Shown: positions 3,561-23,111 of the stretch, one piece after another
Position numbering within the stretch: the first letter of the stretch is position 1
How the letters are laid out: each line of letters begins with the position of its first letter
Virus record (IMG/VR): IMGVR_UViG_3300032053_000041
Coordinates: 1 to 64,000 of that record
From: a virus
DNA length: 64,000 nt
Direction: 5' to 3' (one strand)
Position numbers and translations under genes: made by a program
Notes under the pieces: generated by a model
Told to the model about the DNA's origin: nothing
The model's input: the letters and a program-made list of their open reading frames with translations, nothing else
The model's database searches: none

Positions 3561-4286
3561 TCAACGCACGCGCGGGCGGACCTCTTTCGCAGCATCTTCG
3601 ATGCTACCGACGATGTCGATGTGCCCCGTCGGGATGGCGTCCGGGCCCCGCGGGTCCCCCTGCCAGGATGTGACCTGCCAGGCGATGCCGGGTCTGGTCG
3701 AGCGCGTGATGGTCTGCCACCCGCCAGGGTAGTCGGTGACCGGATTGGCGTCGGTCACCTGGACGACGTACGCGCCGGTTCGCTCGACCTCGGCGCGGAC
3801 GCGCTCGATGTGCGCTTCGCGCTCGCGGCGCATGCGAGCGATCTGCTCCGCGAAGGTCTCTCGGTCGGCGTTCGCGACGAGCTTACCCGTCCCCCCCGCG
3901 ACCTTCAGCGTTCCCTCGTACCGCACCGAGCCCACGCCGTCGTACGAGACGCGCCAGGCCGTCCTTGGAACGTCGATGTAGCCGCGCACGATCCATTCCG
4001 GGTGTTTGCGCCCAGCCTCTTCCCACGCCTCGTCACGCTCTTCCTCGCTCGCCATCACAGGTTCGTCCATCGCGGCACCGTCGTACCGCAACGCTCGCGT
4101 GTTTTTCAGCGAGACCTTCAGCACAAGCTCTTCGCCGCCATGAGCCTCAACCGCCTCCTCCGCGTAATACTCCGCCAGTTCTGGCTCGGCTGCCAGGTAC
4201 GGATCGCGTAGGCCGTCACGCTCGATCTCGTCGGCAAAGACGGTGGACGTGCCGTGGTACAGCGTGAGTGTGCGCGCGGGGTTCAC
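3561..4286 (-). CDS. ADP-ribosyltransferase-fold protein plus C-terminal domain
   Basis: LYHGTS...IERDGL..PYLA...AEYYA resembles ART/Tpt1-like NAD-binding motifs. Confidence 0.6.
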   Translation of the reverse strand: MNPARTLTLYHGTSTVFADEIERDGLRDPYLAAEPELAEYYAEEAVEAHGGEELVLKVSLKNTRALRYDGAAMDEPVMASEEERDEAWEEAGRKHPEWIVRGYIDVPRTAWRVSYDGVGSVRYEGTLKVAGGTGKLVANADRETFAEQIARMRREREAHIERVRAEVERTGAYVVQVTDANPVTDYPGGWQTITRSTRPGIAWQVTSWQGDPRGPDAIPTGHIDIVGSIEDAAKEVRPRVR

Positions 4287-4606
4287 GACATCCTCGTCGC
4301 GAGTTTAGCAAGCCGCGCCGGGCTCGGAGAGTACGCCCACATGATCAGCGCCAGGTGCCTGCGCGTCGGCACGCCGTCCTGCCAGAGCGGCTCTCCATGC
4401 GCCTTCACCTGCGCCATGTGTCGAGCCACGAAGTTGTCTCGCTTCCGCGCCCAGTGCTCCGACAGCCGATTCGGCTCTCCGCTGGCACGCCGGTACGCCG
4501 TCATAAACCCGCGAGGGCTTCGCGCCACGACCGACACGCCGAGCTTCCTGGCCGCGGACATGTACTGGTCGATGAGCCGGAGGCTCAGGTAGCGCGGGCT
4601 GCTCAC
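4283..4606 (-). CDS. basic hypothetical protein
   Basis: Coupled ORF; GVSVVARSPRGF...RDNFVARH...PTRRHLALIMWAYSP. Confidence 0.65.
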   Translation of the reverse strand: MSSPRYLSLRLIDQYMSAARKLGVSVVARSPRGFMTAYRRASGEPNRLSEHWARKRDNFVARHMAQVKAHGEPLWQDGVPTRRHLALIMWAYSPSPARLAKLATRMS

Positions 4607-5820
4607 AGCGCCTCCCTCCCGTTCTCGACCAGAATCTGCTCGATGTCCTTCCCGCCCGCCGTCGGCGTGTGGCCCGGATCGAAGATCACGATGCGGTCCC
4701 AGTCGTCGGCGTCGCGGGCGATGTGCCAGCCGATATTCAGCAGGTGCACGTCACGGAGGTAGACGCCGTTCGAGGCAAGCATTGAGAGAGACTCACCGAG
4801 CGGCGCGAAGGCGCTGCCGCTGAAGTGTCGATCGAGTCGCGAGATGTACTCCTCGATCGATTCCAGTGACGAGAACGATGGAGAGCCCCACGCGCTCGTG
4901 TCCTCTCCTCGTTTACGTCTGTGCCACGCCTGCGCCGCAAGGCGGTACCTATCGAGCCCCTCGATCGCGCGGGAGAAGTCCCCGTACTGTGCGCTCGGGC
5001 CATACGCCGGAGCATCGACAGGAAGCCCCAGCTTGTCCAACGTGTACTGACTGAAGCGCAGTCCCTTCCGATCGTTCACGAACACCGGTTCGATCCCCTC
5101 CCTCACGATCGCCCAGACCTTCTTCTTCCGTCCACCGTACGGGATGTCCGGCGTGATCCGGTGCAGGCTCTTGATCTCTGGGAAGCCCCCGTCGCCGTAT
5201 CGCTCCTCGTCGAGCAGTCCCTTGATCTTCGACCAGATCGGTCCCTCCGTCGGATCGATCGAGAGCTTCACGACCCACGGCGGCGTGCTCTCGAACACGC
5301 AGCCCCAGTGGCCGCAGCCGAGCATCGTGCCGAGCGGCATACCGATGGCCTTCTCGATCTTGTCGCGCTTCGTGAGCAGCTGCTCGACCCACGCCTTCTT
5401 GCGGACGTTCGCGTTCAACGGTCGCGTAGAAAAGCCGCCGCGAGGTATTCCAACCTGAGCAGCCATCCCTTCCGTCACAGGCCACGCGCCCAGTTTCGTA
5501 GATCCAGATCGCTTGCACTCGTCGAGCGCCGCGAGCACGAGCATCTCTGACAATCCTCGCTTCCGGTACTCAGGCAGGATTCCGAGTGCGGTTACTTCGC
5601 ACGTTTCATACCCCCAGACATCTCTGTCCGAGGCGTCTTTGTCGTAGAGCCATAGCGTCGCGGCGCCGACCATCTTTCCGTCAACGAACAGACCGAGCGC
5701 CTTGCTCGTCGTCTGCAGCAGCAGGCCCTCGCTTTCTACCCAGAGACCTCCTTCTCCATCGCCGAGAAAGCGAGACGCTTCCTCGGCGTCGATCGGTACT
5801 ACTTCAACCGCGGGGATCAC
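4603..5820 (-). CDS. GNAT acetyltransferase - protein kinase-like fusion
   Basis: N-terminal LGILPEYRKRGLSEML (GNAT motif A); C-terminal LGCGHWGCVF, VVKL, DVHLLNI, IFDPG (kinase G-loop, Lys, catalytic loop, DFG-like). Confidence 0.75.
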   Translation of the reverse strand: MIPAVEVVPIDAEEASRFLGDGEGGLWVESEGLLLQTTSKALGLFVDGKMVGAATLWLYDKDASDRDVWGYETCEVTALGILPEYRKRGLSEMLVLAALDECKRSGSTKLGAWPVTEGMAAQVGIPRGGFSTRPLNANVRKKAWVEQLLTKRDKIEKAIGMPLGTMLGCGHWGCVFESTPPWVVKLSIDPTEGPIWSKIKGLLDEERYGDGGFPEIKSLHRITPDIPYGGRKKKVWAIVREGIEPVFVNDRKGLRFSQYTLDKLGLPVDAPAYGPSAQYGDFSRAIEGLDRYRLAAQAWHRRKRGEDTSAWGSPSFSSLESIEEYISRLDRHFSGSAFAPLGESLSMLASNGVYLRDVHLLNIGWHIARDADDWDRIVIFDPGHTPTAGGKDIEQILVENGREAL

Positions 5821-6554
5821 TGCGGAACGACCTTGCAGTTCTTCCCGTAGAGGCTGAAGAGGATGTAGTAAACCTCGTCCGGTGAGGCGGTGCGCGGAAC
5901 TTTCGCGCTCGGGTGAGAGAAGTCCACGATGATTCCGTCGTAGCCGAGCATGCTCAGCAGATGACTCTTCAGGCGCCCACGCTCCCGTGCCGCTGCCACC
6001 TCCTCCGAGGATGCGTCAGGGAACAAGCTCGTTGCGGCTGACAGAGCCCACTTCATCACTTTCTCCATCGGTGACCAGGACTCCTTCACTTTATCGCTCG
6101 TGCCGATGTACTCGTCAGGGCCGGACAAGTACGCGAAGTAGTCCACGGGATTCTGAAGTGTGATGTCGCAGGCGATAATCTGTCCGCCGTCTTGCGCAAA
6201 CTTCCTCGCGCCAAACTCCTTGGACGTGAAGTAGATCCCAGGACCGTAGCTTCCCTCCATCGGATACGCCCTCTCAGGAGCGAAGGCGCGGGCGCTGCCG
6301 TGGTAGACGGCGCGATTCTCTTCGTACTCCTCGCCGTGTTCCTCCAGCCAATCCCGCGTCTGCACCATGAGCGCCGCGGCATGTGCCGCGAGCATCGCGT
6401 CGCCCGGCTCCACCCCGTCCTCGACCATGGCTTCGATGACGTCGTCTGGCTCGACACCGGAGACCGAGAGCGCGGCGGCAGCCCGATCGATCAGGTCGTC
6501 GATGTCGCTCCGGGCGTAGTGATCCGTCACGGCAGATCCGCTAGGTTGTCCCAT
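5817..6554 (-). CDS. ADP-ribosyltransferase-like protein (polyvalent-protein ART type)
   Basis: VYHGS, GSYGPGIYFTS, ARKFA, ITLQNP, LGYDGII, YYILF; start position uncertain. Confidence 0.7.
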   Translation of the reverse strand: MGQPSGSAVTDHYARSDIDDLIDRAAAALSVSGVEPDDVIEAMVEDGVEPGDAMLAAHAAALMVQTRDWLEEHGEEYEENRAVYHGSARAFAPERAYPMEGSYGPGIYFTSKEFGARKFAQDGGQIIACDITLQNPVDYFAYLSGPDEYIGTSDKVKESWSPMEKVMKWALSAATSLFPDASSEEVAAARERGRLKSHLLSMLGYDGIIVDFSHPSAKVPRTASPDEVYYILFSLYGKNCKVVPQ

Positions 6555-7525
6555 CCGGACGCTTCTCGGATCTCCGCCGCTTGCTCCACGGCTTCCATCG
6601 CCTCGTGCGCGGCCGCGCTGTTCGGCTTGAACGGCAACACGATCTGCGGCACCGGCATCGACGGATCGATCTGGCGCTCCCAGCGATACCGTAGGTTCGA
6701 CAGATCCTGATCGCTGAGCCCGGCGCTCTGCCCGATGAGGCCGAGCAGGTTGATTGCGTCGAGCGTGAATCCGCGCACGTCGAGACCGAGGATCCAGAGC
6801 GGATACGCCTCATGGATCCCGTCTCGCTGCAGTGCTTGCCACAAGCCAGCCGGTTCGGAGTGCGTAAACGTAGCCGTGAACGACGCGATGATCAGATTGT
6901 GCTTGAGAGCGCTCTCCCACGTGTAGACGTCCACGGTCATGATCTTCTCGACATCCACATCGATCGTGTTCACGTGCGTGATGTTGCCACCATCGTATTC
7001 TTGGTCCTCGATCCGGTAGGAGTACTCCCTCGTGACGTCCACTCCTTCGTCCGTCTCTTCGTGCTCCTCCGATGCGACGAGCTTCCGCCGTCGCGCAGCG
7101 CTCCACCAAGCCTCGGCTTCTTCGGATCGGGTCCCCTCCATCGAGGAGATCCCGTCACCGGTCGGGCCGTACGACCCTATCTTGTACCGGTCGCGTTCCC
7201 CTTGCTCGTTCCACTCGTGGTTCTGGTGCGCCCCAAGACAGAGTGCCGTGTACAGCGATGTGCCGTAGCCCATCCCCTCTGTCTCGACGCGGTTCCGTCT
7301 CAGCGCTCGTCGCGGGCCACGATTCGGGGTGTGCGACCGAGGCAGGCCAGTGATCGACGATCCGGAATCCTCCCCGTAATACCCATCGCCCAGGTATTCC
7401 CATTCCTGATCCTCCCCGTCCTCGCCCACGGTCGGGAACGCTCTGATGTTGATGTGGCCTCCATCGGCCACCACGAGCACGGGCACCTTCAGCTTCGGGT
7501 TGATGACGACGCCGAGAGCGATCAT
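6527..7525 (-). CDS. GNAT-like NPKL/LGLDVR-family protein (paralog 1 of 3)
   Basis: GVVINPKL, GMGYGTSLY, RSEEAEAWW, ILGLDVR, LRYRWE shared with 31401 and 33001. Confidence 0.7.
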   Translation of the reverse strand: MIALGVVINPKLKVPVLVVADGGHINIRAFPTVGEDGEDQEWEYLGDGYYGEDSGSSITGLPRSHTPNRGPRRALRRNRVETEGMGYGTSLYTALCLGAHQNHEWNEQGERDRYKIGSYGPTGDGISSMEGTRSEEAEAWWSAARRRKLVASEEHEETDEGVDVTREYSYRIEDQEYDGGNITHVNTIDVDVEKIMTVDVYTWESALKHNLIIASFTATFTHSEPAGLWQALQRDGIHEAYPLWILGLDVRGFTLDAINLLGLIGQSAGLSDQDLSNLRYRWERQIDPSMPVPQIVLPFKPNSAAAHEAMEAVEQAAEIREASGWDNLADLP

Positions 7526-7540
7526 GTGCCGCAGGCTACA

Positions 7541-8611
7541 TCAGCGGCCCGCGGCGTGCCACTCGACGGTCCAACCCGAGGGGCCGTACGTGTGACGGGC
7601 CTCCTGCGCAGCCTCGTCGTAGTCGGCGTGGGCTCCGCGAGCGACGTCGCCACCGGCGAGGTGGATGCGCCAGGCACCGCCTGGGGAGTGTCGCCCACCC
7701 GGCACGTTCACCGCGAAGTGGTGCGGCTTCGCGTAGCGCACAGGCGGCACGCTCGGATCGAACGGTCTCGACGACGGCGGAGGTGGCGGACGGCGAGCGT
7801 TCTTCGAGATGAACTGTCCCGGCGGCGGCGTCGAGCCCCCGAAGAACGACGGCGCCTGACCGAGCGAGGTCATCACCGGCACAGTCGGGCTGACCAACGG
7901 GAACTTCAGTGGCGTGGACTTCGGCTTCGGTTTCGGTTTCGGCGCTGGCAGCGCAGGTCGCGCTGGCGCAGGTCGCGCCGCGGGCGGTTGCCAGGCGCCA
8001 ACGAATCCGCCTGGCGTCTGTGCCGGCGACGGAGACAGCGACGGTCGCGCCGGTAGCGACAGCGTCGGGCGCGGCTGGAAGTACTGCGCCATCCCAGGCG
8101 GCAGAGCGTCTCCCAGCATCGCCTCTCGCGCCTCAGGGCTGATCATCGGCGCCGGCACAGTCACGATCGGCACCTTCGGCCGAGCCGGCATGTTCTCCCA
8201 GAACTTCTCCTCGGCGATCACGAGCGCGAACTCGAAGTCCTCGTCGCTCGCGGTGCCGCGCGAGTCTGGATTCGAGACGGTCATGTTGAACACGCCGTCC
8301 TTGCTCGCGCCGAACGTCAGACGTGCCTTCGCCGCGTGAAGGAACATGTGAATCCGGTTCTCCAACTCCGGGTCGATGTACTTCTTCTTCGAGCGTGAGC
8401 CCATCGAAGCGCTCAGTACATGCTCGAAGCTCTCGTCGAGGAATGTGCCGCCGGGGTCGAGCGTGATCGTGAACGCTTCAGGCGTGGCGCCGATGTCGAC
8501 GACAACGCCCTTCGGTTTCTGTGTCAGCCAAGCGATGAGCTTGTCCTGAAAGACCGGGTCGATGTCGTAGAGCGTGATGTCGTCGGCAGAAGACGCGCGT
8601 CTCTTGGCCAT
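7541..8611 (-). CDS. hypothetical protein with Pro-rich linker
   Basis: 356-aa ORF directly downstream of dnaB. Confidence 0.65.
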   Translation of the reverse strand: MAKRRASSADDITLYDIDPVFQDKLIAWLTQKPKGVVVDIGATPEAFTITLDPGGTFLDESFEHVLSASMGSRSKKKYIDPELENRIHMFLHAAKARLTFGASKDGVFNMTVSNPDSRGTASDEDFEFALVIAEEKFWENMPARPKVPIVTVPAPMISPEAREAMLGDALPPGMAQYFQPRPTLSLPARPSLSPSPAQTPGGFVGAWQPPAARPAPARPALPAPKPKPKPKSTPLKFPLVSPTVPVMTSLGQAPSFFGGSTPPPGQFISKNARRPPPPPSSRPFDPSVPPVRYAKPHHFAVNVPGGRHSPGGAWRIHLAGGDVARGAHADYDEAAQEARHTYGPSGWTVEWHAAGR

Positions 8612-13442: not shown

Positions 13443-14105
13443 CTAAAGACCGCTCGGTGCCGTGCTCATAAGCTCGGCGTAGTCGAATTTCTTTCCGAGC
13501 GCGTCGCTGATGGTCACGCTCTTGGTATCGTCGAGTCGAAGCAAAGTTCCGTTGTAGATGAGCGCGTGCTTCGGGACCGTGACCTCGCCGCGAGCGACCG
13601 ACTTGCCTAGATCGGTGATCCGGTAGAAGCCGGTGCGCGAAGAGCCGTCGTCGCGCACTCCTTCTCGCTCTTCCAGAAGTCCCCACGCGACGAGCTTCGC
13701 CCAGTCCCCTCCTCGTGTCGTCGGACCGAGCTTGCAGACGCGGGACAAGTAGTCCGGGACATGAAAGTACTCCGAGCCACCTTCCTCTGTCGGCCGCTTG
13801 TAGATCATCACGAGTGCGTACGCCATCGAGGACGTGATGGTGCGCGCGTACACTTTGGCGAACTGCGTGCAGCACGGGCAGCTAGCTCCGTCCTGGACAT
13901 GCGCCGTCAGCCACTGGCGCGCGTAGGAGAGCGTGACCGCGTCGAGAGATAATCCGAACTCGGTCCGCCTGAACCCGTCGTTACCTTCACGGAAGGTGAC
14001 GAGCGGCATCTCGATCCCCACCCATCTCATCGCGCGGATCGCTAACCAGAGTTTTACTCTACGCCAGAGTCCGTTGTTCGTCTTCAGGTTCGATGGTACC
14101 GTCAT
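13443..14105 (-). CDS. hypothetical protein, CPCC plus wHTH-like
   Basis: AGGAG RBS; CPCCTQ, KLVAWGLLEE, YRITDLG. Confidence 0.65.
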   Translation of the reverse strand: MTVPSNLKTNNGLWRRVKLWLAIRAMRWVGIEMPLVTFREGNDGFRRTEFGLSLDAVTLSYARQWLTAHVQDGASCPCCTQFAKVYARTITSSMAYALVMIYKRPTEEGGSEYFHVPDYLSRVCKLGPTTRGGDWAKLVAWGLLEEREGVRDDGSSRTGFYRITDLGKSVARGEVTVPKHALIYNGTLLRLDDTKSVTISDALGKKFDYAELMSTAPSGL

Positions 14106-14290
14106 CGTGTCTGCTCCTTCTAGGTGGTGGGTTCAGACATGCGGGCCGCTCCTTCATGCTCGGGGCGGCCCGCGACTTTGTGGACCGCAGGCTGCCTCCT
14201 GGCTAGCCATCCGTCAAGCAGCGGCAGGACACGAAATGTCCAGGGTTCGGCAGCGACATGTGCCGTCAGATAGAGCAAAAAGCACCGGGC

Positions 14291-14343
14291 TTGACGGTAG
14301 CGGCTAGCTTGGCTATCAGTGCTAGCCAGAGCATGCCGCTAGC
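14291..14343 (+). promoter_or_regulatory. sigma70-like promoter TTGACG-N17-TATCAG overlapped by 9-bp-periodic GCTAGC boxes
   Basis: GCTAGC 14303, GCTATC 14312, GCTAGC 14321, GCTAGC 14338; lies in the divergent intergenic region. Confidence 0.6.
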
Positions 14344-14394
14344 GGTGGTTGCCTCCAGCAACATAAGCCCCTAGCGGCATGCTCGCTCAGGCAC

Positions 14395-15345
14395 ATGCTC
14401 CACAAGTCCTCCCCTCTCCGTGTCTCGGTGCGTCCGGACTTCGAGTCGCTCCTCGACGTCGCGACGCCGGCAGACGCTCCGGCGCGCACGGAGGACGGAC
14501 GCCCGTGGGTGCGCTGGGCGAAGTACGGCTCGTACTCGGGCTGGTACGCCGTCGGCGCTCGGAAGCCGAAGCTCGTGGGCAAGCCGACGTTCTGGGAGGC
14601 CGTCTACTCCGTGGCGTGCGCATGTGCCGGGGGGAACGTCGACCAGGCGCACTGTTACGGCCGGGGCGTGCTCGGTCTCGGCGGTCTCGGTGTCACGATG
14701 CGCTCGGGCTACGCGCAGCTGCTGCTCCACTCGTGTCTCTTGTCGAACCCGGCGCGTTACGTCGAGATCATGGCCCCAGTGATCCACGAGACGGGCATGT
14801 ACACGAAGCTCTCGGGGAAGAGCCCGAGCGGCATCGCGCTCTGTGCGCTCGGGAAGTACGCACTGGCCGAGGACCAGATGCGCGCCCTCGTGATGATGGG
14901 CTCCGACGGGATGACCTGGACGACCGCGCAGAAGAAGCGGGCGAAGGTCTGGGTCTCGTGCTGTTCGGAGCTTCTGCGAGACGAAGCGATGGACAGGGCA
15001 CAGCAGGCGTTCGCCGAGGAGGTGATGCCGGCACTCCTGACGGACGTGACGAAGGAGGCGATCAAGTGGCCGCGTCAGGGTCCGCGCGACTGGTGGCAGT
15101 ACACGCACGAGCAGCAGATGCTCTGGGCGCTCACGCTTGTGCTGGTGCTGGAGGACGAGGAGCAGACGGAGCGCCTCGTGAGCGCTGCGCGGGCCGGGGC
15201 GCACGGGGACGAGGACTTCTCGGCGGCGGCCGTCCTGCGTGCTATCGCCGTTGAAGTGAACGAGCCCGGCTACGACGACATGTTCCGCGAGCGATGCTGG
15301 ATGGCGGCGAAGAACCTGACGAGCCTGCTGGGGGTGACGCTGTGA
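14395..15345 (+). CDS. hypothetical protein
   Basis: 316-aa ORF, first gene of the plus-strand unit. Confidence 0.7.
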   Translation: MLHKSSPLRVSVRPDFESLLDVATPADAPARTEDGRPWVRWAKYGSYSGWYAVGARKPKLVGKPTFWEAVYSVACACAGGNVDQAHCYGRGVLGLGGLGVTMRSGYAQLLLHSCLLSNPARYVEIMAPVIHETGMYTKLSGKSPSGIALCALGKYALAEDQMRALVMMGSDGMTWTTAQKKRAKVWVSCCSELLRDEAMDRAQQAFAEEVMPALLTDVTKEAIKWPRQGPRDWWQYTHEQQMLWALTLVLVLEDEEQTERLVSAARAGAHGDEDFSAAAVLRAIAVEVNEPGYDDMFRERCWMAAKNLTSLLGVTL

Positions 15346-15779
15346 TGGCGCAGCCTACGGTGTGGCAGGACAATCACGGGTATGCCCAGCCCGCGCCGCG
15401 CCTCCAATGGGCGACGCACGCCTGTGCGTTCGACGTCGGTAAAGAACGCGCCTCATGGCTTCTTCAGCCGTACCAACAATTCCGTCCGAAGTATTTCCTG
15501 ATCTCGACGCCGGGCTTCGTCGTCAACTCGCTCGATATGAACCGCGCTTACCGGCTGCTCAACGAGGTCGATGGAGACCTATATCTCGTGAGCGAATGGG
15601 ATCGGCTGGAGCGCGAGTCGCAGCTGGAGCGGGTGCGTCTGCCGGGGTTCACGCTGAAACCCAGCGATCAGCTGAACCTGCAGGTGACGCTGCGGAACGC
15701 CGCGAATCTGGCACCAGGCAGGACAGTGCGGTTCAGCGCGATGATCGTCGGCGAAGAACTCGTGCAGGGGCCGTACTGA
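15345..15779 (+). CDS. beta-rich protein, possible single jelly-roll capsid-like
   Basis: QPYQQFRPKYFLI..FVVNSL...LNLQVTLRN...FSAMIVG alternating beta pattern; fold call is from memory only. Confidence 0.45.
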   Translation: MAQPTVWQDNHGYAQPAPRLQWATHACAFDVGKERASWLLQPYQQFRPKYFLISTPGFVVNSLDMNRAYRLLNEVDGDLYLVSEWDRLERESQLERVRLPGFTLKPSDQLNLQVTLRNAANLAPGRTVRFSAMIVGEELVQGPY

Positions 15780-15945
15780 TGGCGCGGCTTATCGGTGTGC
15801 GCGCACGGGACTGGCGGGGGATCTGGCGCTGGCATCCGGCACCGCAGCCACTGGGACACATACCGTACGAATTGAAGCAGTGCCTCAACGCCATCGGGCT
15901 CGTGGCGCTGATGGCGGTCATTACGGAGGCTCTCGAAGGAGACAG

Positions 15946-16641
15946 ATGAACAAGGACAAGCACCAGGCAGCGATCGACGCTCTCTCGGAACTCATGCGGA
16001 GTGAACTCGACGGCGACATGCGCGGGAGGTTCGCGTGCGTGAACCGGCTAGCTGTGCTCGCGCAGAAGCTCCAGGTCGAGATGAACCCGCGCCCCGAGGA
16101 CATGGACGAGCGCGAGCAGGATGCGTACGGCATAAACGTCATGGACCACGGCATCGTCAGGGGCGGCGGAGCTATGGGCGCAGCCATGTACGGTGGCGAC
16201 CAGGCGCAGATGGCCCGCGAGATGCTCGCGATGATCGGCCCCGCGATGGGCGGCCTCCATAGCAACAACGAAGCGAAGAAGCGGGAGTCGATGGCTCGGG
16301 AACTGAACGAGCTACTCACGGCCAGGCGCATGCTGCAGATCGATCAGCAGCCAGACGCCGACGCTGTGGCAAAACTCACGAAACGGATCAACGCGCTCAC
16401 GGATCTGGTGAGCCAGGAAGAAGAACAGGAGAATCCCCATGCACAAGCCCCAGAACTTCACGTGGTACCTGCCGTCGATGTACGGCGACATCAAGCTGGA
16501 GAAGATCACGGACAAGTCGACGCGCCTCACGCTCGTCGGGCTCTCCCCGACGGAGAAGGAGGCCGTGAAGGCGCTCTTCGCGCGGGCGGTGAAGCCGGGG
16601 GCCTTCAAGAAGGTGTGGACATCGGAGACGGCGCTGCGTGA
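15946..16641 (+). CDS. hypothetical protein (3' end overlaps next gene by ~200 bp)
   Basis: AAGGAG RBS, MNKDKHQ; helical. Confidence 0.6.
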   Translation: MNKDKHQAAIDALSELMRSELDGDMRGRFACVNRLAVLAQKLQVEMNPRPEDMDEREQDAYGINVMDHGIVRGGGAMGAAMYGGDQAQMAREMLAMIGPAMGGLHSNNEAKKRESMARELNELLTARRMLQIDQQPDADAVAKLTKRINALTDLVSQEEEQENPHAQAPELHVVPAVDVRRHQAGEDHGQVDAPHARRALPDGEGGREGALRAGGEAGGLQEGVDIGDGAA

Positions 16642-17299
16642 CGTCGATCTCGGTTCCCTGAAGGAGCAGATGCTCTCGCTCGACGCGCCGATCTCGCAGG
16701 TGCAGGACTTCCTGCAGAAGAAGCTGAAGCCGCACCGGAAGCAGGTGTCCGTGGTGCGCTTCGCAAGCGGGCGTCTCGAAGAGCTTTCCGAGGCGACGCT
16801 GCAGGTCATCGACGGCACCGCGGAGGATGTGCCTGGGACGGTCGTGGAGGCTCAGGCGGTGGAGCCGGTCGTGGAGAAGAAGGAGAAGCCGGCACCCAGG
16901 AAGGAGGACAAGCCCGCGGTGGCGGCGACGGTGGGGCAGCCGGCGCTCGGGTGCCCGGTACCGGAGTTCGACGAGGTCGAGATCCGGGCGACACGTGTCC
17001 TCAAAGCGTTCCTGACGCCGGAGCAGGTGGAGGACTTCGACCGGAGGCAGCAGTTCGTGGCCGTCGGCGCGGACACAGGCCACAGGTACCTGCTCACGTC
17101 GCGGCAGTCGCGGCACGCCTTCGAGCGGGCGAGCTTCCGATCGCTCTACGACATGGATGAGAGGCAGGCGCTCTGCGTACATGACTGGGAGGTCCCCGCG
17201 GCCGAGGAGCTTCTTGGGCTTTATCTGCATGTGTCCCTGCCGGGACTGGAGGGCTTCGTTCGGTCCATGCCGGACCGAGACGGGGTGCTGCACCGGTGA
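16439..17299 (+). CDS. hypothetical protein
   Basis: AGGAG RBS; strong GC3 codon bias. Confidence 0.75.
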   Translation: MHKPQNFTWYLPSMYGDIKLEKITDKSTRLTLVGLSPTEKEAVKALFARAVKPGAFKKVWTSETALRDVDLGSLKEQMLSLDAPISQVQDFLQKKLKPHRKQVSVVRFASGRLEELSEATLQVIDGTAEDVPGTVVEAQAVEPVVEKKEKPAPRKEDKPAVAATVGQPALGCPVPEFDEVEIRATRVLKAFLTPEQVEDFDRRQQFVAVGADTGHRYLLTSRQSRHAFERASFRSLYDMDERQALCVHDWEVPAAEELLGLYLHVSLPGLEGFVRSMPDRDGVLHR

Positions 17300-17673
17300 G
17301 CGACGAATCCGTCCCGCAGATGTTGCACAATGCCCTCGCGCTGCTCAATCGCGAGTTTCCAGCCGCCAAGCTCGTCGAGGTCCGCTTGGAGTTCCGTAGC
17401 GGTGAGCGTCACGGCGCGACGTACGGCTGCGCACAAAACTGGACCAACGAACCGACCTGGACGCTACAGGTCAATAACGACCGCGAGTCCCATTCTGTGC
17501 TGAGTGAAGCGCTCGCCGTGCTTCGGGTAAAGCTCGCTCGCAAGGCGCAGGTGCCTGGGCTCGCCGATCGCGTCGCGACCATCCTTCGCGAGATCCCGGA
17601 CGAGGGGTTCGAGAGGAATGACGTGCTCATGGCCGCGCAGGTGATGCTGGAGAAGGAGCGCAGCGGACGATGA
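17296..17673 (+). CDS. hypothetical protein
   Basis: GTGA-coupled to the previous gene. Confidence 0.6.
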   Translation: MSDESVPQMLHNALALLNREFPAAKLVEVRLEFRSGERHGATYGCAQNWTNEPTWTLQVNNDRESHSVLSEALAVLRVKLARKAQVPGLADRVATILREIPDEGFERNDVLMAAQVMLEKERSGR

Positions 17674-17747
17674 ACCGAGAGTCGCTGGTCGTCGCTGGTT
17701 GTCTTCTCCTCTGCTGGTTCTTTGGCTTCGCGTGCGGAAAGGCGTAG

Positions 17748-17957
17748 GTGGCTGGAATGAAGCCCGACGCGGAACAGATTACGGAGCCGGTGACTATCAC
17801 GCCGCCCGAGCCACCTTGGGTCGAGCCGTGCATGGCGTGCTCGCGGCCCATGCGATGCGACAAAGGACCGTCTGCGCTCTGGTGCTGGCGTTGCCGTTGT
17901 CGCTCGTGGCTAGGTGTCAGAGTCAGGAGCACACTCAGAGTCAGGAGCACACGATGA
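17748..17957 (+). CDS. small Cys-rich protein ending at the first cassette core
   Basis: CxxC...CxxCxC; its TGA is the TGA of the core at 17955. Confidence 0.5.
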   Translation: MAGMKPDAEQITEPVTITPPEPPWVEPCMACSRPMRCDKGPSALWCWRCRCRSWLGVRVRSTLRVRSTR

Positions 17958-18247
17958 AGCAAGGCACTCAGTCGGATAATTCAGGGGCGAGCTACCTGGA
18001 TACGGAGAACGGCACGGTGCAGAACCTCGTCTACTGGCTCCGCGATCCGCTGGACGAGGAGACGCTGGCGGTGCTGTGCAGAGTAGAGCGCGGCACCCAG
18101 GGATTCAGGCGCGATCGGTTGAACGTGGCGTACCTTGTGAGCCGCGACTGCATCACGGCCGACTGCAACGCCGAGACGCTCGCGATCACGCCTACCGGTA
18201 GGGATGCTCTGGCATATTTCGGTGGAGAGAACAGGGCTCGTAGATGA
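17954..18247 (+). CDS. cassette 1 protein, wHTH-like
   Basis: Starts MKQ at a core and stops at the next core; YLVSRDCI...ITPTGRDAL. Confidence 0.6.
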   Translation: MKQGTQSDNSGASYLDTENGTVQNLVYWLRDPLDEETLAVLCRVERGTQGFRRDRLNVAYLVSRDCITADCNAETLAITPTGRDALAYFGGENRARR

Positions 18248-18287
18248 AGCACGGTTGCACGGTAGATCCAACGGAACGGAGCATGTG

Positions 18288-18704
18288 ATGGCAGATCCCA
18301 AAGAGAACGCGCCGGTCGATTCTGAAGCGGTGGACCCGGGAACCCTGACGCTCTACCGGGCGCAGAGCGAGCAGCCGTGGACGGTGCCATATGGAAAGAA
18401 CAAGTGGTGGGTGGTGAGCGAAGAGGGCCGTCTGAAGCACTGCCTGTCGCACGCTCAGAAGACGCTCGGGAAGATCGCTGCCATCGTCGAGAGCTTGGAC
18501 CACGCGGACCGAGGCTGGCTCACCGACGATGAGTGCGATCAGGTGGGCGACATGGCTGCGGACCTCGTAACGGTCGCGCTACAGGTGGGCACGACGGTTT
18601 CGCGCAGCGTCGCTCACGCCCTCGTCCGTCGCGTCGTCGCTAAGAACGGCAAGCTGTTCGATCTGACCGGAGGAACCTATGGCCGTGCGCTCATCTGCAA
18701 GTGA
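18288..18704 (+). CDS. cassette 2 protein, MazG-like all-helical NTP pyrophosphohydrolase fold (tentative)
   Basis: HCLSHAQKTLGKIAAIVESLDH...GDMAADLVTVAL; preceded by 14-codon leader MKHGCTVDPTERSM*. Confidence 0.5.
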   Translation: MADPKENAPVDSEAVDPGTLTLYRAQSEQPWTVPYGKNKWWVVSEEGRLKHCLSHAQKTLGKIAAIVESLDHADRGWLTDDECDQVGDMAADLVTVALQVGTTVSRSVAHALVRRVVAKNGKLFDLTGGTYGRALICK

Positions 18705-18791
18705 ACCGAAGGTGAGCGGGACACGTTCAGCGGACTCCCGCTCGGCAATGAAGCACGGATGCACGGCAGACCACGCGGAACGGAGCATGTG

Positions 18792-19163
18792 ATGGCAGAT
18801 CCAAACGAGATGGGTACGGAGTCGGTGGTTTCCGGAGCCGCGGGGCCGGTCGATTCTGACGAGCCAAAGTCGCTGTGGACCGTTGTTGGGCTGTACGAAC
18901 GGGGCAAGTACAACCGAGACACGTTCGTTTGCTACCTGAGCGGAATCACCGCGGAAGAAGCAAAGCGTTTTGCCGAAGAGGGCAACGCGGCACGTGGTGA
19001 CAAGATAGAAGTGCTAGCGTGCGTCGCAGGGGGCGGTGTCGCTCACGTGTTTCAGCGTGCGGCCAGCCGATGCACATGCACGCCGTACAACCCGGAGCAT
19101 GATTGTCCTGAGCACGGTCTTCAGGTGAGCGGGACTGAGAACGGATCGGAGGCTCGCAGATGA
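18792..19163 (+). CDS. cassette 3 protein
   Basis: Same leader type as cassette 2 (MKHGCTADHAERSM*); CTC...DCPEH; stops at a core. Confidence 0.6.
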   Translation: MADPNEMGTESVVSGAAGPVDSDEPKSLWTVVGLYERGKYNRDTFVCYLSGITAEEAKRFAEEGNAARGDKIEVLACVAGGGVAHVFQRAASRCTCTPYNPEHDCPEHGLQVSGTENGSEARR

Positions 19164-19215
19164 AGCATCCCCGAATCAGAAACCGTGCTCAGCGGAGCAC
19201 GAGAGAGGCAATCCG

Positions 19216-19452
19216 GTGACCTCGGAACGATCGGCGCGCGCGCTCAAGTGGCTCGACGATAGGTACGAGACTCGTTCCGCAGAGGAGCGACAAGCGATAC
19301 TTCGGTTGGAGCCTGCTATCTTGGCGATGTTGGTTGGGCATCATGCGCTAGGGGGCTTCGCCAGTGATGAAGCTCCAGCCATGGTCAACATAGTTCGTAT
19401 CTGGTTGGAAACGAAGGTGAGCGCATCCGAAAAGACCCCGGTGCAACCGTGA
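19216..19452 (+). CDS. cassette 4 protein
   Basis: Follows a 19-codon leader; ends EKTPVQP* at a core. Confidence 0.55.
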   Translation: MTSERSARALKWLDDRYETRSAEERQAILRLEPAILAMLVGHHALGGFASDEAPAMVNIVRIWLETKVSASEKTPVQP

Positions 19453-19652
19453 AGCAATCGAAGAAACTGATTGAGGTACACTCAGATCCGCGAACCTGTC
19501 TCTGCGGATGGGTCAGACCGGTGCGAGCCGGGTTCGCAAAAGACGAGATGGGAAACGAACCGATCGAGGTTCCAGAAAAACGGTTCTACTTTCTCTATGA
19601 CTGCCCGCAGTGCGGCGCGCGGTGGAACATGCTTCTGGAACGGGTGGATTAG
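19449..19652 (+). CDS. cassette 5 zinc-ribbon protein (copy A)
   Basis: CLCG...YDCPQCG; near-identical to 20552..20755. Confidence 0.7.
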   Translation: MKQSKKLIEVHSDPRTCLCGWVRPVRAGFAKDEMGNEPIEVPEKRFYFLYDCPQCGARWNMLLERVD

Positions 19653-19710
19653 GGAGCAACCGTGAAGCAACGTGTGTCGGAAACTACCCCAACAAGAAAG
19701 AGGCGATTCG

Positions 19711-20037
19711 TTGACCAAGAATCCGTTGTCGAAGCTCTACGGTGAGTGCCTCGTTGATCGAGCCGGCTCCCTTGAGGCTCGGGGGAAGGATCTTTTGATG
19801 AGTGAAGTTCGTGAGCGGGCGTTCGCGGAGTTCCTACGCCGCCATAACGATACGCTCGTAGCACTGGTGGCGACGCTCCCGAAGTGCGCTCGGGGCTGTC
19901 GCCGTCTGGCTACCACGACGGACGGTGACGGGACGTACCACTGCGATCCTCATCGACCGCCGCGTGAACTTACGGTCAGCGTGGACCTGCCGTGGGCGAA
20001 GCTAGTTCGGGAAGAAAAGATTCCGGTGCAACCGTGA
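19711..20037 (+). CDS. cassette 6 protein
   Basis: TTG start after AAAGAGG; CxxxC...CxxH; ends EKIPVQP* at a core. Confidence 0.55.
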   Translation: MTKNPLSKLYGECLVDRAGSLEARGKDLLMSEVRERAFAEFLRRHNDTLVALVATLPKCARGCRRLATTTDGDGTYHCDPHRPPRELTVSVDLPWAKLVREEKIPVQP

Positions 20038-20156
20038 AGCATCTTGCAGACTGGATTCTTGACCAAGCCTCGCTGCTCGTGCCGTGCCTGTTCGCCGGGG
20101 CGTTCGTCGCTCTGATAGGTGGCGAGGTGTACGACCGAATCAGGGAGCAACCGTGA
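20034..20156 (+). CDS. cassette 7, 40-aa membrane peptide
   Basis: MKHLADWILDQASLLVPCLFAGAFVALIGGEVYDRIREQP*, running exactly core-to-core. Confidence 0.55.
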   Translation: MKHLADWILDQASLLVPCLFAGAFVALIGGEVYDRIREQP

Positions 20157-20208
20157 AGCAGCAGGTACCGGCTGTCCGCAACGACCCCGACACGAAGGAG
20201 ACAATCCG

Positions 20209-20376
20209 ATGAACCAGAAAACGAAGAAGTGCCGCGAAGAGCACCCGATCCTCTGCATCGACCCGGCGGGCGAGATTCCTCTTCGGTGCGGACTCCCGAA
20301 GGGCCACGGGGGGCTGCACGAGGACGAGCGAGAAACGGATGGCGCGAAGCCAGAGAAGACGGAGCCCGCGCCGTGA
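20209..20376 (+). CDS. cassette 8 protein, C-x-L-x-x-GH-x-G-x-H
   Basis: AAGGAG RBS in a 19-codon leader homologous to that of cassette 4; stops at a core. Confidence 0.55.
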   Translation: MNQKTKKCREEHPILCIDPAGEIPLRCGLPKGHGGLHEDERETDGAKPEKTEPAP

Positions 20377-20555
20377 AGCATCCTCGCCCCACCATCTCGG
20401 AACCCGCAGTTCTGAACTACGTGGTCTTTCACGCCGCCGATTGCCGCCGACTGCTCGACAAGTGGTGCCCGTGCGGCTGCGGAGCCGAGCAGCGAGCGCG
20501 AGACGCTCTCTATCGAGCGGTGGACGGATGCTCAGACACTAGGAGACAACCATGA
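20373..20555 (+). CDS. cassette 9 Cys-rich protein
   Basis: MKH start; HxxDC...CPCGCG; core-to-core. Confidence 0.55.
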   Translation: MKHPRPTISEPAVLNYVVFHAADCRRLLDKWCPCGCGAEQRARDALYRAVDGCSDTRRQP

Positions 20556-20755
20556 AGCAACCGAAGATACTGATTGAGGTACACTCAGATCCGCGAACCT
20601 GTCTCTGCGGATGGGTCCGACCGGTGCGAGCCGGGTTCGCAAAAGACGAGATGGGAAACGAACCGATCGAGGTTCCAGAGACACGGTTCTATTTTCTCTA
20701 TGACTGCCCGCAGTGCGGCGCTCGGTGGAACATGCTTCTGGAACGGGTGGATTAG
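20552..20755 (+). CDS. cassette 10 zinc-ribbon protein (copy B of cassette 5)
   Basis: Differs from copy A at 3 of 67 aa. Confidence 0.7.
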   Translation: MKQPKILIEVHSDPRTCLCGWVRPVRAGFAKDEMGNEPIEVPETRFYFLYDCPQCGARWNMLLERVD

Positions 20756-20764
20756 GCGGCACCC

Positions 20765-20974
20765 GTGAAGCAGCATGACCAACCGAAGCCGCTCGTGCAC
20801 TGGTGCGTGTTCAACGACGGGGAGCCGGTGTGCGGGGCGAAGATGCCGGAGCCGCCGACGAGAAAGCCGTTCTCGTGGCCCGACCACTACCCGCGGGTGG
20901 CGACGTCTCAGAAATATGTGACGTGCGAAGCCTGCAAGGAGCACTGCGCCGGTCCGAACAAGGCGAACCGGTGA
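20765..20974 (+). CDS. cassette 11 zinc-finger protein
   Basis: MKQ start at the last core; VH...PVCG...VTCEAC. Confidence 0.6.
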   Translation: MKQHDQPKPLVHWCVFNDGEPVCGAKMPEPPTRKPFSWPDHYPRVATSQKYVTCEACKEHCAGPNKANR

Positions 20975-20992
20975 GCAAGAAGGAAGAGGAAC

Positions 20993-21196
20993 ATGAAGTT
21001 CAGTGAAGTGATCGCGGCGCTGGAGGACGGGAAGAAGGTCAGGCAGTCCGGCATCGAGGGAGACTACTACCAGTTGGTCTCGCCGGGTCAGGGACTGAAT
21101 CGCCAGTTGGTGTACGTGTATCAAGACGGCAGCTGGGAGAACGCGGAACTCAGATTCAGCGGTCACATGCGCAACGACTGGTCGGTGGTCGAGTGA
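20993..21196 (+). CDS. small protein resembling DUF2829/Tad2-type phage proteins (tentative)
   Basis: MKFSEVIAALEDGKKVRQ...NDWSVVE matches the remembered family ends MxFxEAL..LK.GKKV.R ... DW.IV. Confidence 0.45.
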   Translation: MKFSEVIAALEDGKKVRQSGIEGDYYQLVSPGQGLNRQLVYVYQDGSWENAELRFSGHMRNDWSVVE

Positions 21197-21471
21197 CGCA
21201 CAAGGCGTGGAACGTGGTCGTCATCGAAACGGAGCCGGAGACGGCGTGCGCGCGGTGCAAGAACAAGAAGGAGTGCCGCGACGTACTCGGTGATGGCACG
21301 AAGCTGTGCTTCAGCTGCGCAACGTCGGCTGAGAAGGAAGCGTACGGACGTCGGATGTTCGGGTCGCCTTCCACCGGCTTGCGCGAGACAGCCGACCGTC
21401 TCTTCGATGGCCTGAATGACAAGGAGAAGGAACTCGTCAAACGTAGGTTCGCCAAGAGGGAGGGGAAGTAG
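21193..21471 (+). CDS. zinc-finger protein
   Basis: CARC...LCFSC. Confidence 0.6.
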   Translation: MTHKAWNVVVIETEPETACARCKNKKECRDVLGDGTKLCFSCATSAEKEAYGRRMFGSPSTGLRETADRLFDGLNDKEKELVKRRFAKREGK

Positions 21472-22272
21472 ATGAGCAGCACCGGTCGCGGCAGCGAGCG
21501 CGAGGAGAACGACGTCTACCTGACGCGCTACCCGCTCGCGCTCGCGATCTGCGAGAAGCTGAAGGCCGACGGCGTCATCGTCGCGCCGAGCGTGATGATG
21601 GAGCCGAGCGCGGGGGGAGGCTCCTTCGTCAGTGCGATGGCCGAGACATGGGCCCCGCGAACGCTGTACTGCAACGACCTCAACAGCGGTCTGATCTTGC
21701 CGGAGCACGAGGACCGTGCCCGGTTCTGCATCGAGCGCGCCCACCTGGGCCGTCACGAGAGCCACGGCAAGCTGATCTCGCTGGAGGGCGACTTCCTGCA
21801 GATCGAGCAGCGGAATGTGCCTGGGATCCAGGCCATCGTGGGCAATCCGCCATTCACCTTCGCGGAGCAGCATGTCCGTCATGCGATCTCGCTGCTTGCC
21901 CCTGGTGGAGCGCTCGCCTTCCTCCTTCCTGTGAACTTCCTCTCGGGCATCAAGCGTGTCGGCGGGCTCTATCGGGAGCACCCGCCCGAGTACGTGTACG
22001 TGATCGACAAGCGCCCGCAGTTCGTGGACGGCTACCGGATCAACAAGCACGGCAAGCGCGTGAAGAAGGGGACCGACTCGAACGAGTACGGCGTCTTCGT
22101 GTGGAGGAAAGAGCGCCCCGAATTTGAACCAGTGATCCGGTGGCTTCAGTGGTCGAAGTACTTGCAGAGGTTCAAGAACAAAGTCGAGAGGGTCGAGATC
22201 CAGGTAGGACAGAACGTGGACACGGACGACGAGGACGTGGCAGGCTCCGCGACCGCAGGAGAGACAGAATGA
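21472..22272 (+). CDS. DNA N6-adenine methyltransferase
   Basis: SAM motif MEPSAGGGSF precedes catalytic GNPPF. Confidence 0.88.
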   Translation: MSSTGRGSEREENDVYLTRYPLALAICEKLKADGVIVAPSVMMEPSAGGGSFVSAMAETWAPRTLYCNDLNSGLILPEHEDRARFCIERAHLGRHESHGKLISLEGDFLQIEQRNVPGIQAIVGNPPFTFAEQHVRHAISLLAPGGALAFLLPVNFLSGIKRVGGLYREHPPEYVYVIDKRPQFVDGYRINKHGKRVKKGTDSNEYGVFVWRKERPEFEPVIRWLQWSKYLQRFKNKVERVEIQVGQNVDTDDEDVAGSATAGETE

Positions 22273-23111
22273 ACCGACGACTTATCGCGTTGCTGCTTTC
22301 GCTCACGCTCGTTCTCGGAATACATGCCGCCGCCGCTGACCAGCGGAGTGGTCTGGAGCGCTGGCTATTCGCGACGGCGAACAAGCTGGAGCACTCATCG
22401 GCTCCAGGCGAAACGCGAGAGGACTACGAACGGCGGCTCGGTGGCATGTCCGCCGCGCTCGCTCGCGCCACGAAGCCCTACGCGAACGGGCAGGGCTGGA
22501 CGACGACCGAGCTAGGACTCGCGATGCTGACGCTGTGGCACGCGGAGACGTTGTTTGATCAGCGTGTCCACGCTGGTATGCAGCACCCGAAGTGGACCCA
22601 GGACAAGGGGCGCGCCCGGTGCCTTGGTCAGATCCACGTCTCGCTCCTTGTGCCGCAGTCGGAATGGGAGAAGCTGGTCGGAACGGACGAGGGAGCGACG
22701 CAGATGTGCGCAGATGCAACGGCCCGGATCTGGGTTGCGCAGGCCCGGCAGTGCGGCGTCTGGTACGGTCAGCGAGCCGATCGGAACAAGGTAGCGAAGG
22801 TCTTCGCGGCCTACGCGAGCGGCGGCAACTGCCGCCCCGGAGAGCGCGACTGGGCGCGAGCAGACAAGTGGTTGGCCGGCATCGCGCAGCGACCGGATCG
22901 GAGCCCGGTGAAGGGCTATCGCCGGGCGGCCCCTGCCGAGATCCCGTCGAATGTGAAGGAGGACGCTCGAACGCTTGCGACCGAACTCGCTCCTCCCGGT
23001 GGCCACAAAGTCGGCGCGCAGTTTCCCGTGTGGGGCTCGTTTCTGTTGCTTGTCGAGAAGCACGCCGAGGGCAAACTCGGAGTTTCCGTTCTGATGAAGG
23101 AGAGCACGTAA
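22269..23111 (+). CDS. secreted lysozyme/transglycosylase-like protein
   Basis: Signal peptide; HAETLFD...DKGRARCLGQIH...AAYASG resembles SLT motifs. Confidence 0.55.
   Translation: MNRRLIALLLSLTLVLGIHAAAADQRSGLERWLFATANKLEHSSAPGETREDYERRLGGMSAALARATKPYANGQGWTTTELGLAMLTLWHAETLFDQRVHAGMQHPKWTQDKGRARCLGQIHVSLLVPQSEWEKLVGTDEGATQMCADATARIWVAQARQCGVWYGQRADRNKVAKVFAAYASGGNCRPGERDWARADKWLAGIAQRPDRSPVKGYRRAAPAEIPSNVKEDARTLATELAPPGGHKVGAQFPVWGSFLLLVEKHAEGKLGVSVLMKEST

Follow-up and report, generated by a model that had tools for sequence, protein, structure and literature searches.

Organization of the small-gene array

The window analysed here is the first 64 kb (64,000 nucleotides) of IMG/VR record IMGVR_UViG_3300032053_000041, a 76,228-bp record from an uncultured phage that is rated 56% complete; the GC content is about 64%. 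Positions 17954–20974 hold an array of 11 small-gene units (U1 to U11), each opening with the octamer RTGAAGCA, and one of these units, which carries a zinc-ribbon-like gene, is present twice (U5 and U10). All array features described below are on the + strand. The heptamer TGAAGCA was found 21 times in the window, a four-fold excess over the 5.3 occurrences expected, and none of 100 shuffles reached this number. The 11 RTGAAGCA sites all lie on the + strand, packed within 2.8 kb (17954–20765).

The sequence repeated at the unit boundaries, here called the joint, has a constant order: a Shine-Dalgarno sequence (GGWG), a 5-nt spacer, an RTGA overlap in which TGA ends the upstream gene and RTG opens the next frame, and finally AAG CA. 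The common left arm, GGWGCAACC, is the Shine-Dalgarno sequence with its 5-nt spacer. The joint therefore presents features of translational coupling, namely a stop/start overlap and a Shine-Dalgarno sequence inside the upstream frame, with GGWG 5 nt before the start. Since the TGAAGCA core combines the stop/start overlap with AAG CA, unrelated proteins start with M-K-Q or M-K-H; many array proteins end in ...QP. The ‘core’ and ‘arms’ that a first-pass annotation of this sequence had distinguished are better described in these terms: the core is the stop/start overlap plus the first two codons, and the arms are codons 3–6 on one side and the spacer of the Shine-Dalgarno sequence on the other.

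In units U1, U5, U7, U9, U10 and U11 the joint start leads straight into the cargo gene. In U2, U3, U4, U6 and U8 it opens a mini open reading frame (mini-ORF) of 14–27 codons. The mini-ORFs of U2, U3, U4 and U8 end in a second stop/start overlap onto the cargo, which is preceded by a second Shine-Dalgarno sequence. That of U4 (19160–19219, 19 codons) holds this second Shine-Dalgarno sequence and is joined through its TGA to the overlapping GTG of the cargo at 19216–19452; that of U8 (20153–20212, also 19 codons) has a stop overlapping the ATG of the cargo at 20209–20376. The frame of U6 has slipped, so that its mini-ORF overruns the conserved overlap and terminates within the cargo. The leaders of U2 and U3 (18236–18306 and 18740–18810) are 71 nt long and 85% identical, and contain a 14-codon mini-ORF (MKHGCT...); their bases 9–19, read as the reverse complement, match the common left arm at 10 and 9 of 11 bases, respectively. 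This leader family was also present in five other contigs.

The array cargos have few recognizable relatives. Pfam matched none of the 10 array proteins searched, PHROGs assigned U2 to one family of unknown function and matched the remaining proteins weakly at best (E above 0.04), and an ESM Atlas search with the duplicated protein yielded unnamed clusters only. Apart from the shared cargos described below, the cargo families are almost all unique.

The duplicated unit

The first copy (U5, 19449–19652) is a 67-amino-acid (aa) ORF with a GTG start, a TAG stop and a CxC...CxxC motif. The second copy (U10, 20552–20755) is the same 67-aa ORF with an ATG start, a TAG stop and the changes S4P, K6I and K44T. 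In each copy the TAG stop lies ten bases ahead of the next joint. The TGA of the left joint of copy 1 (19450–19456) is the stop of U4 (19216–19452), and its right joint (19663–19669) is the start of U6. For copy 2, the TGA of the left joint (20553–20559) is the stop of U9, preceded by a tail that travels with the U9 cargo in contig L019, while the right joint (20766–20772) is the start of U11.

The first-pass annotation had described two near-identical 213-bp units separated by four cassettes, with similarity ending at TGAAGCA, and pairwise alignment bore this out. Positions 19449–19662 and 20552–20765 aligned without gaps at 95% identity (BLAST E 7e-96), and the four units between them start at 19662, 20034, 20153 and 20373. 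At the fixed offset of 1103 nt, 19444–19674 and 20547–20777 matched at 218 of 231 positions, with 13 differences and no gaps. Counted from the cores, identity dropped to background before position -5 and after position +8, a few bases beyond the flanking TGAAGCA words. At both ends, the homology between the copies is indistinguishable from the joint consensus common to all units. A BLAST search of the whole record found these two copies only. Duplication of a larger block was considered and discarded: the array holds a single paralogous pair, and the neighbouring units (U4 and U9, U6 and U11) are dissimilar by eye.

Ten differences separate the copies within the 213-nt unit: two in the 5′ arm (19458 and 19465), five in the body (19515, 19577, 19579, 19589 and 19619) and three in the 3′ arm (19654, 19655 and 19659). 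The base preceding the left core (19449) also differs, giving the GTG and ATG starts. The clustering of changes towards the ends that had been noted earlier is significant (five in 27 nt versus five in 186 nt; Fisher p=0.0037), and the arm strings quoted for it (ATCGAAGAAA versus ACCGAAGATA and GAGCAACCG versus CGGCACCCG) are exact. The 5′ arm of copy 1 (19457–19465) begins at the last base of codon 3 and extends into codon 6, most of which it covers; two of its nine bases are changed in copy 2 (20560–20568), and it is unconserved in contigs L054 and L055. The 3′ arm (19653–19662) consists of the Shine-Dalgarno sequence GGAG and the spacer CAACC for the GTG of the next unit, and has three changes in copy 2 (20756–20765). 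That the arms change faster than the body was apparent in three comparisons, U5 with U10, U5 with L054/L055, and U9 with L019.

Coding changes between the copies comprise four synonymous and three non-synonymous substitutions plus the start codon, which suggests that both copies are probably functional and the duplication not very recent. Relative to L054/L055, both copies have accumulated changes. A near-identical relative of copy 2 (P0001) differs from it by one substitution and one extra C-terminal residue. The copies are 5% diverged, mostly at synonymous positions, and the allele of copy 2 is in circulation elsewhere; the second copy may therefore stem from recombination with a related phage and not from a recent duplication in situ. 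Import of such an allele is as likely as duplication in situ followed by divergence. Either route would use the joints.

Joints in other phages

The joint recurs in other phages. A 17-mer joint sequence (GGWGCAACCGTGAAGCA) was found in 28 IMG/VR contig stretches, about 18 of which carry same-strand clusters of RTGAAGCA spaced 150–900 nt apart. Aligned, the conserved module spans about 100 nt; a tail (GGTGAGCG...AAAGACC..GGTGCAACC) is followed by the core and by about 52 nt of leader, which is either a separate 19-codon ORF or an in-frame fusion to the cargo. A module model built from sequence only identified 9, 12, 11, 5 and 3 copies in five records, and one 140-kb genome contained three separate arrays. 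The 17-mer matches in L022, L025, L026 and L030–L033 are single sites outside arrays and are most likely unrelated to them. Repeated joints were not found in the more distant relatives L013–L015, and a literature search found no published description of the TGAAGCA joint.

Among 80 distinct joints from this and related contigs, the joint TGA terminated an upstream frame of at least 40 codons in 59, and 35 opened a mini-ORF of at most 30 codons, of which 26 end in an NTGA stop/start overlap. Such an overlap closes every one of the 14 mini-ORFs that measure exactly 19 codons.

Two other explanations for the conservation of the module were set aside. A structured RNA or ribozyme at the joints was ruled out: the module had no match in Rfam, its RNAalifold consensus was empty, and its folding z-score (about +0.4) showed it to be no more stable than shuffled sequences. 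The absence of a fold is what an open ribosome-loading region would be expected to show. A conserved N-terminal peptide tag, in the style of T4 capsid targeting, is unlikely because the leader nucleotides are conserved even where the frame is broken or stopped.

Breakpoints of exchanged segments

In six comparisons involving other contigs, and in that of U5 with U10, cassette homology broke at the joint or at the stop codon. Homology between U9 and L019 extended from about +22 through the tail and the next core, ending immediately after it, and that between L016 and L038, L017 and L029, and L023 and L028 ended at the core or within about 12 bases past it. A cassette encoding an Xer-like recombinase, 90–94% identical at the nucleotide level in three contigs, was homologous from exactly TGAAGCA to exactly its stop codon, with unrelated flanks.

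The array of the window lies in a variable slot. In L010, a close relative with flanks 97% and 81% identical, the whole 3.5-kb slot (17673–21192) is replaced by two unrelated small genes (L010:9236–9780). The breakpoints are exactly at an ATGA overlap, located at 17670–17673 on the + strand of the window, and at a GTGA overlap, so that in-register exchange at gene boundaries occurs even without TGAAGCA. The contig of another relative, L012, ends within U1.

In a single metagenome scan, the cargo of the duplicated unit was found only in a 53%-GC lineage, represented by contigs L053–L055. The first-pass annotation had proposed that the core-to-core unit moves as a unit and that it be sought in relatives. 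The duplication within the array is indeed in register with the joints. However, the piece shared with the other lineage is not core-to-core: only the gene body, 19466–19651, is common to L053–L055 (86–87% nucleotide identity), from just past the first codons to the stop, and there it has been re-fitted to a different joint. The joint of the 53%-GC arrays is TAATCATCRTGACT (stop, 5-nt spacer, start and a Thr codon), of which at least 11 copies occur in 8.6 kb (arrays at L055:330–8220 and L054:755–3560). Since the same cargo sits in arrays with this other joint, each lineage has its own standard joint, and the cargos are common property.

At L027:5133–5156 there is a hybrid joint, in which the motif of the other lineage (TAGTCATCGTG) opens a three-codon mini-ORF that shares its TGA with the TTGAAGCA core. 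In L018, a contig of 38–43% GC, an island of 50–65% GC (4000–6800) contains three TGAAGCA-type modules and a gene for a DUF2201 metallopeptidase/VWA protein; as AT-rich DNA lies on both flanks, the island is a block acquired by transfer or else a double chimera.

Recombinase genes near the arrays

Tyrosine recombinases (PF00589) were encoded in all five records searched, in which no serine recombinase was found. In records G002 and G003 the Xer-like recombinase is itself an array unit. G001 and G004 encode recombinase fusions (ORFs of 1279 and 1249 aa) located 1.2 and 3.9 kb downstream of an array. The only recombinase of the genome studied here lies 44 kb from the array. The two kinds of recombinase are unrelated, with 23% identity in the catalytic end, and none was recognized as IntI-type: the scores on the NCBIfam integron-integrase models did not exceed 35 bits (cut-offs of 265 and 435).

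The Xer-like recombinase unit is located at L057:6656–7656 (with the gene at 6712–7653), at L027:5149–6149 and at L062:5589–6020 together with L056:1–791. It starts in L027 with TTGAAGCA, and a C5 DNA methylase gene follows it in two of the three contigs. In the 96-kb record G002, the two contig ends share 220 nt at 97% identity (L056:1–220 and L062:5796–6015); its array is thus continuous across them, with about 15 units and the recombinase in the middle. Just past the window, a 1432-aa ORF (L052:933–5228; 64932–69230 of the record) has an Xer-like recombinase, comprising a SAM-like N domain and a catalytic domain, in its first ~535 residues. The remaining ~900 residues gave no match; similar ORFs are the 1279-aa and 1249-aa fusions.

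Interpretation of the joints

The reading that we favour, as probable if well short of certain, is that the joints are standardised translational-coupling elements that double as recombination points and are exploited by ordinary short-homology recombination, in a manner close to the modular shuffling of promoter-early stem-loop (PeSL) cassettes. The segment 17954–20974 would be one long message of small accessory genes. In about half of the units, as in the duplicated one, the joint start opens the cargo directly; in the others it opens a mini-ORF, typically of 19 codons, with a second Shine-Dalgarno sequence and ending in an NTGA overlap onto the cargo. Given the standard architecture of the joint, ribosomes would be handed from gene to gene regardless of the cargo. 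Because 8–19 identical bases lie at every boundary, here and in the arrays of other phages, recombination at the joints could delete, duplicate or import a gene in register, and homologous or short-homology recombination by phage or host functions, or template switching, would suffice as agents. The duplicated 213-nt unit would be one product, placing the zinc-ribbon-like gene at two positions with both copies under purifying selection, and the bases beside the joint (first codons and Shine-Dalgarno spacer) would evolve or be swapped faster than the body. The layout of the units, the coupling signals, their presence in other phages and the breakpoints at joints are observations; ribosome coupling probably operates at the joints as described, and the exchanges were probably made by ordinary recombination, not by a dedicated enzyme.

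Several observations weigh against this reading. Some exchanges share only 7–8 bases at the breakpoint, which is short for homologous recombination. In four of the five records an array contains a tyrosine recombinase gene or has one no more than 4 kb away. The word TGAAGCA is more invariant than a ribosome site requires: it is carried by 47 of 49 leaders found with a matrix blind to the core, four of these 47 being CTGAAGCA, where the word is retained though it is not a start, and the AAG of the joint is never AAA. In addition, the first bases of one leader family (eight joints, including those of U2 and U3), when reverse-complemented, agree with the commonest left arm at 8–10 of 11 positions, a resemblance that the reading leaves unexplained; the background frequency of matches of at least 9 of 11 is 2e-4.

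A rival reading is a dedicated, integron-like system, in which TGAAGCA would be the 7-bp crossover of a tyrosine recombinase, the arms would bind the enzyme, units would be excised as circles and re-inserted at other joints, and the duplicate would be a re-insertion. The heptamer is near-invariant whatever base precedes it, the common left arm and the one leader family form a composite 11-7-11 palindrome, PF00589 genes occur in all five records searched and, in four of them, inside or close to an array, and the left breakpoint of the recombinase cassette is exactly at TGAAGCA in three unrelated contexts. We nevertheless consider such a system unlikely. Single joints have no dyad symmetry (a mean of 2.5 complementary bases of 11, no better than random pairings) and no attC-like fold; the recombinases are of two unrelated kinds and far below the integron-integrase cut-offs, and that of this genome is distant from the array. 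Further, the right breakpoints of some units lie at a plain stop codon without a core, precise swaps also occurred at bare RTGA overlaps, and stop, spacer and start account just as well for the different joint of the other lineage. The broader proposal, a new phage gene-cassette platform in which the stop/start 7-bp word is the crossover of a dedicated tyrosine recombinase and ORFan genes circulate in ready-to-express form among unrelated phages, is about as unlikely, or marginally more so; its candidate enzymes would be the array-borne Xer-like enzyme or the 1250–1430-aa recombinase fusion of the larger phages. A lower probability still attaches to the invariant word being a translational operator or RNA-processing site, where binding or cleavage of GUGAAGCA in the message by a phage protein would turn the whole array on or off together, with shuffling as a by-product of the repeated sequence. 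T4 RegA and RegB are models for such a message-binding or message-cutting protein. The invariant bases lie on both sides of the start codon, the RNA of the module is unstructured, all copies are co-oriented with the genes, and nucleotides are conserved despite a broken frame (the U6 mini-ORF is out of frame with the conserved overlap, and one L029 leader stops after three codons). However, no candidate regulator was identified, and an operator alone does not explain breakpoints at the joint. An operator would be compatible with, and not exclusive of, the reading favoured here. Finally, the duplication could be an artefact of assembly, if a gene with a single copy was represented by alleles from two strains that were stitched into one contig. 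The record is a metagenome assembly and 56% complete, the copies are as far apart as alleles (5%), and the copy-2 allele occurs in other data. Against this, each copy lies between different unique units, with 8–14 nt shared per join, too short to bridge without spanning reads, and the U9 cargo runs without a break into the tail before copy 2, as it does in L019. Misassembly is thus very improbable, since the unique flanks are joined via 8–14 nt only and the second allele exists independently (P0001).

If standardised coupling joints do serve as recombination points, an uncultured group of 96–140-kb phages would handle its accessory genes by a plug-in standard: a small gene placed between two joints would be translated by ribosome hand-over and could be copied, lost or handed to another phage in register. 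The ‘linker’ idea of modular evolution would gain a concrete form at the level of translation, and the quick try-out of ORFan genes would be explained. A small, clean test case is provided by the duplicated unit together with the copy of its cargo in the other lineage, which show what bases are part of the gene and what bases are part of the socket.

Comparison with known systems

The closest described system is the PeSL-mediated modular shuffling of T4-type phages (PMC2839356, PMC4122927). In both cases a hyperplastic region holds small, non-essential genes, mostly ORFans, with a short conserved expression signal recurring between them, and this signal bounds insertions, deletions, replacements, duplications and exchange between phages. 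Here the motif is repeated between small genes (11 joints in 3 kb), the slot is swapped wholesale in L010, and the gain, loss and exchange of genes between phages are bounded by the motif. PeSL cassettes carry a sigma-70 promoter and a terminator hairpin, each unit forming its own transcript, and their mini-circles have been demonstrated (PMC2839356, PMC4122927). In contrast, the signal here is translational (Shine-Dalgarno sequence, overlap, first codons and an optional relay ORF) and unfolded, and the array is apparently one message. No PeSL-type promoter and stem-loop were found at the joints: in the region 14000–23000 there was no promoter-like site, terminator-like sites occurred at the shuffle rate (5 seen versus 5.6 expected), and the module had no fold.

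Integrons, including those borne by phages (PMC9892861), also have co-oriented, promoterless, mostly single-gene units with diverse cargo and a short invariant boundary word, and tyrosine recombinase genes lie near some of the arrays studied here. However, the boundary word is here part of a coding and translation signal. Membership in the integrons was rejected, since there is no attC hairpin, the core is TGAAGCA and not GTTRRRY, the joint has no dyad symmetry, and no IntI-type integrase was found.

The mini-ORF units resemble the synthetic bicistronic design (BCD), in which a leader cistron contains the Shine-Dalgarno sequence for the target gene and its stop overlaps the target start, giving context-independent expression (PMC5995908, 10.1101/2023.02.09.527918). 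A leader cistron with an embedded Shine-Dalgarno sequence and a stop/start overlap is likewise common to BCD, natural translational coupling (PMC12548453) and the joints. While BCD is a single engineered adaptor, the module described here is natural, repeated, chained through the array, and marks recombination breakpoints. The relay mini-ORF module is a natural counterpart of BCD, a part at which synthetic biologists arrived on their own.

A shufflon of the Rci type was rejected, as 11 of 11 array sites are on the + strand and the arrays of the other records are each single-stranded. The start-associated sequences (SAS) of cluster K mycobacteriophages are reportedly short conserved sequences at the translation starts of a subset of genes. 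They are said to lie upstream of the start, scattered rather than chained, to be unrelated in sequence to the joint, and not to have been reported as cassette boundaries.

Other features of the window

Most other large ORFs of the window had no family match; those recognized include a DNA methyltransferase at 21472–22272 and, on the minus strand, a DnaB-type helicase. The last small gene of the variable slot (20993–21196, + strand) has a degenerate joint, ATGAAGTT, and its TGA overlaps the GTG of a conserved gene at 21193. Immediately upstream of the first joint of the array, at 17900–17953, there are two copies of a 16-nt tandem repeat, AGAGTCAGGAGCACAC.

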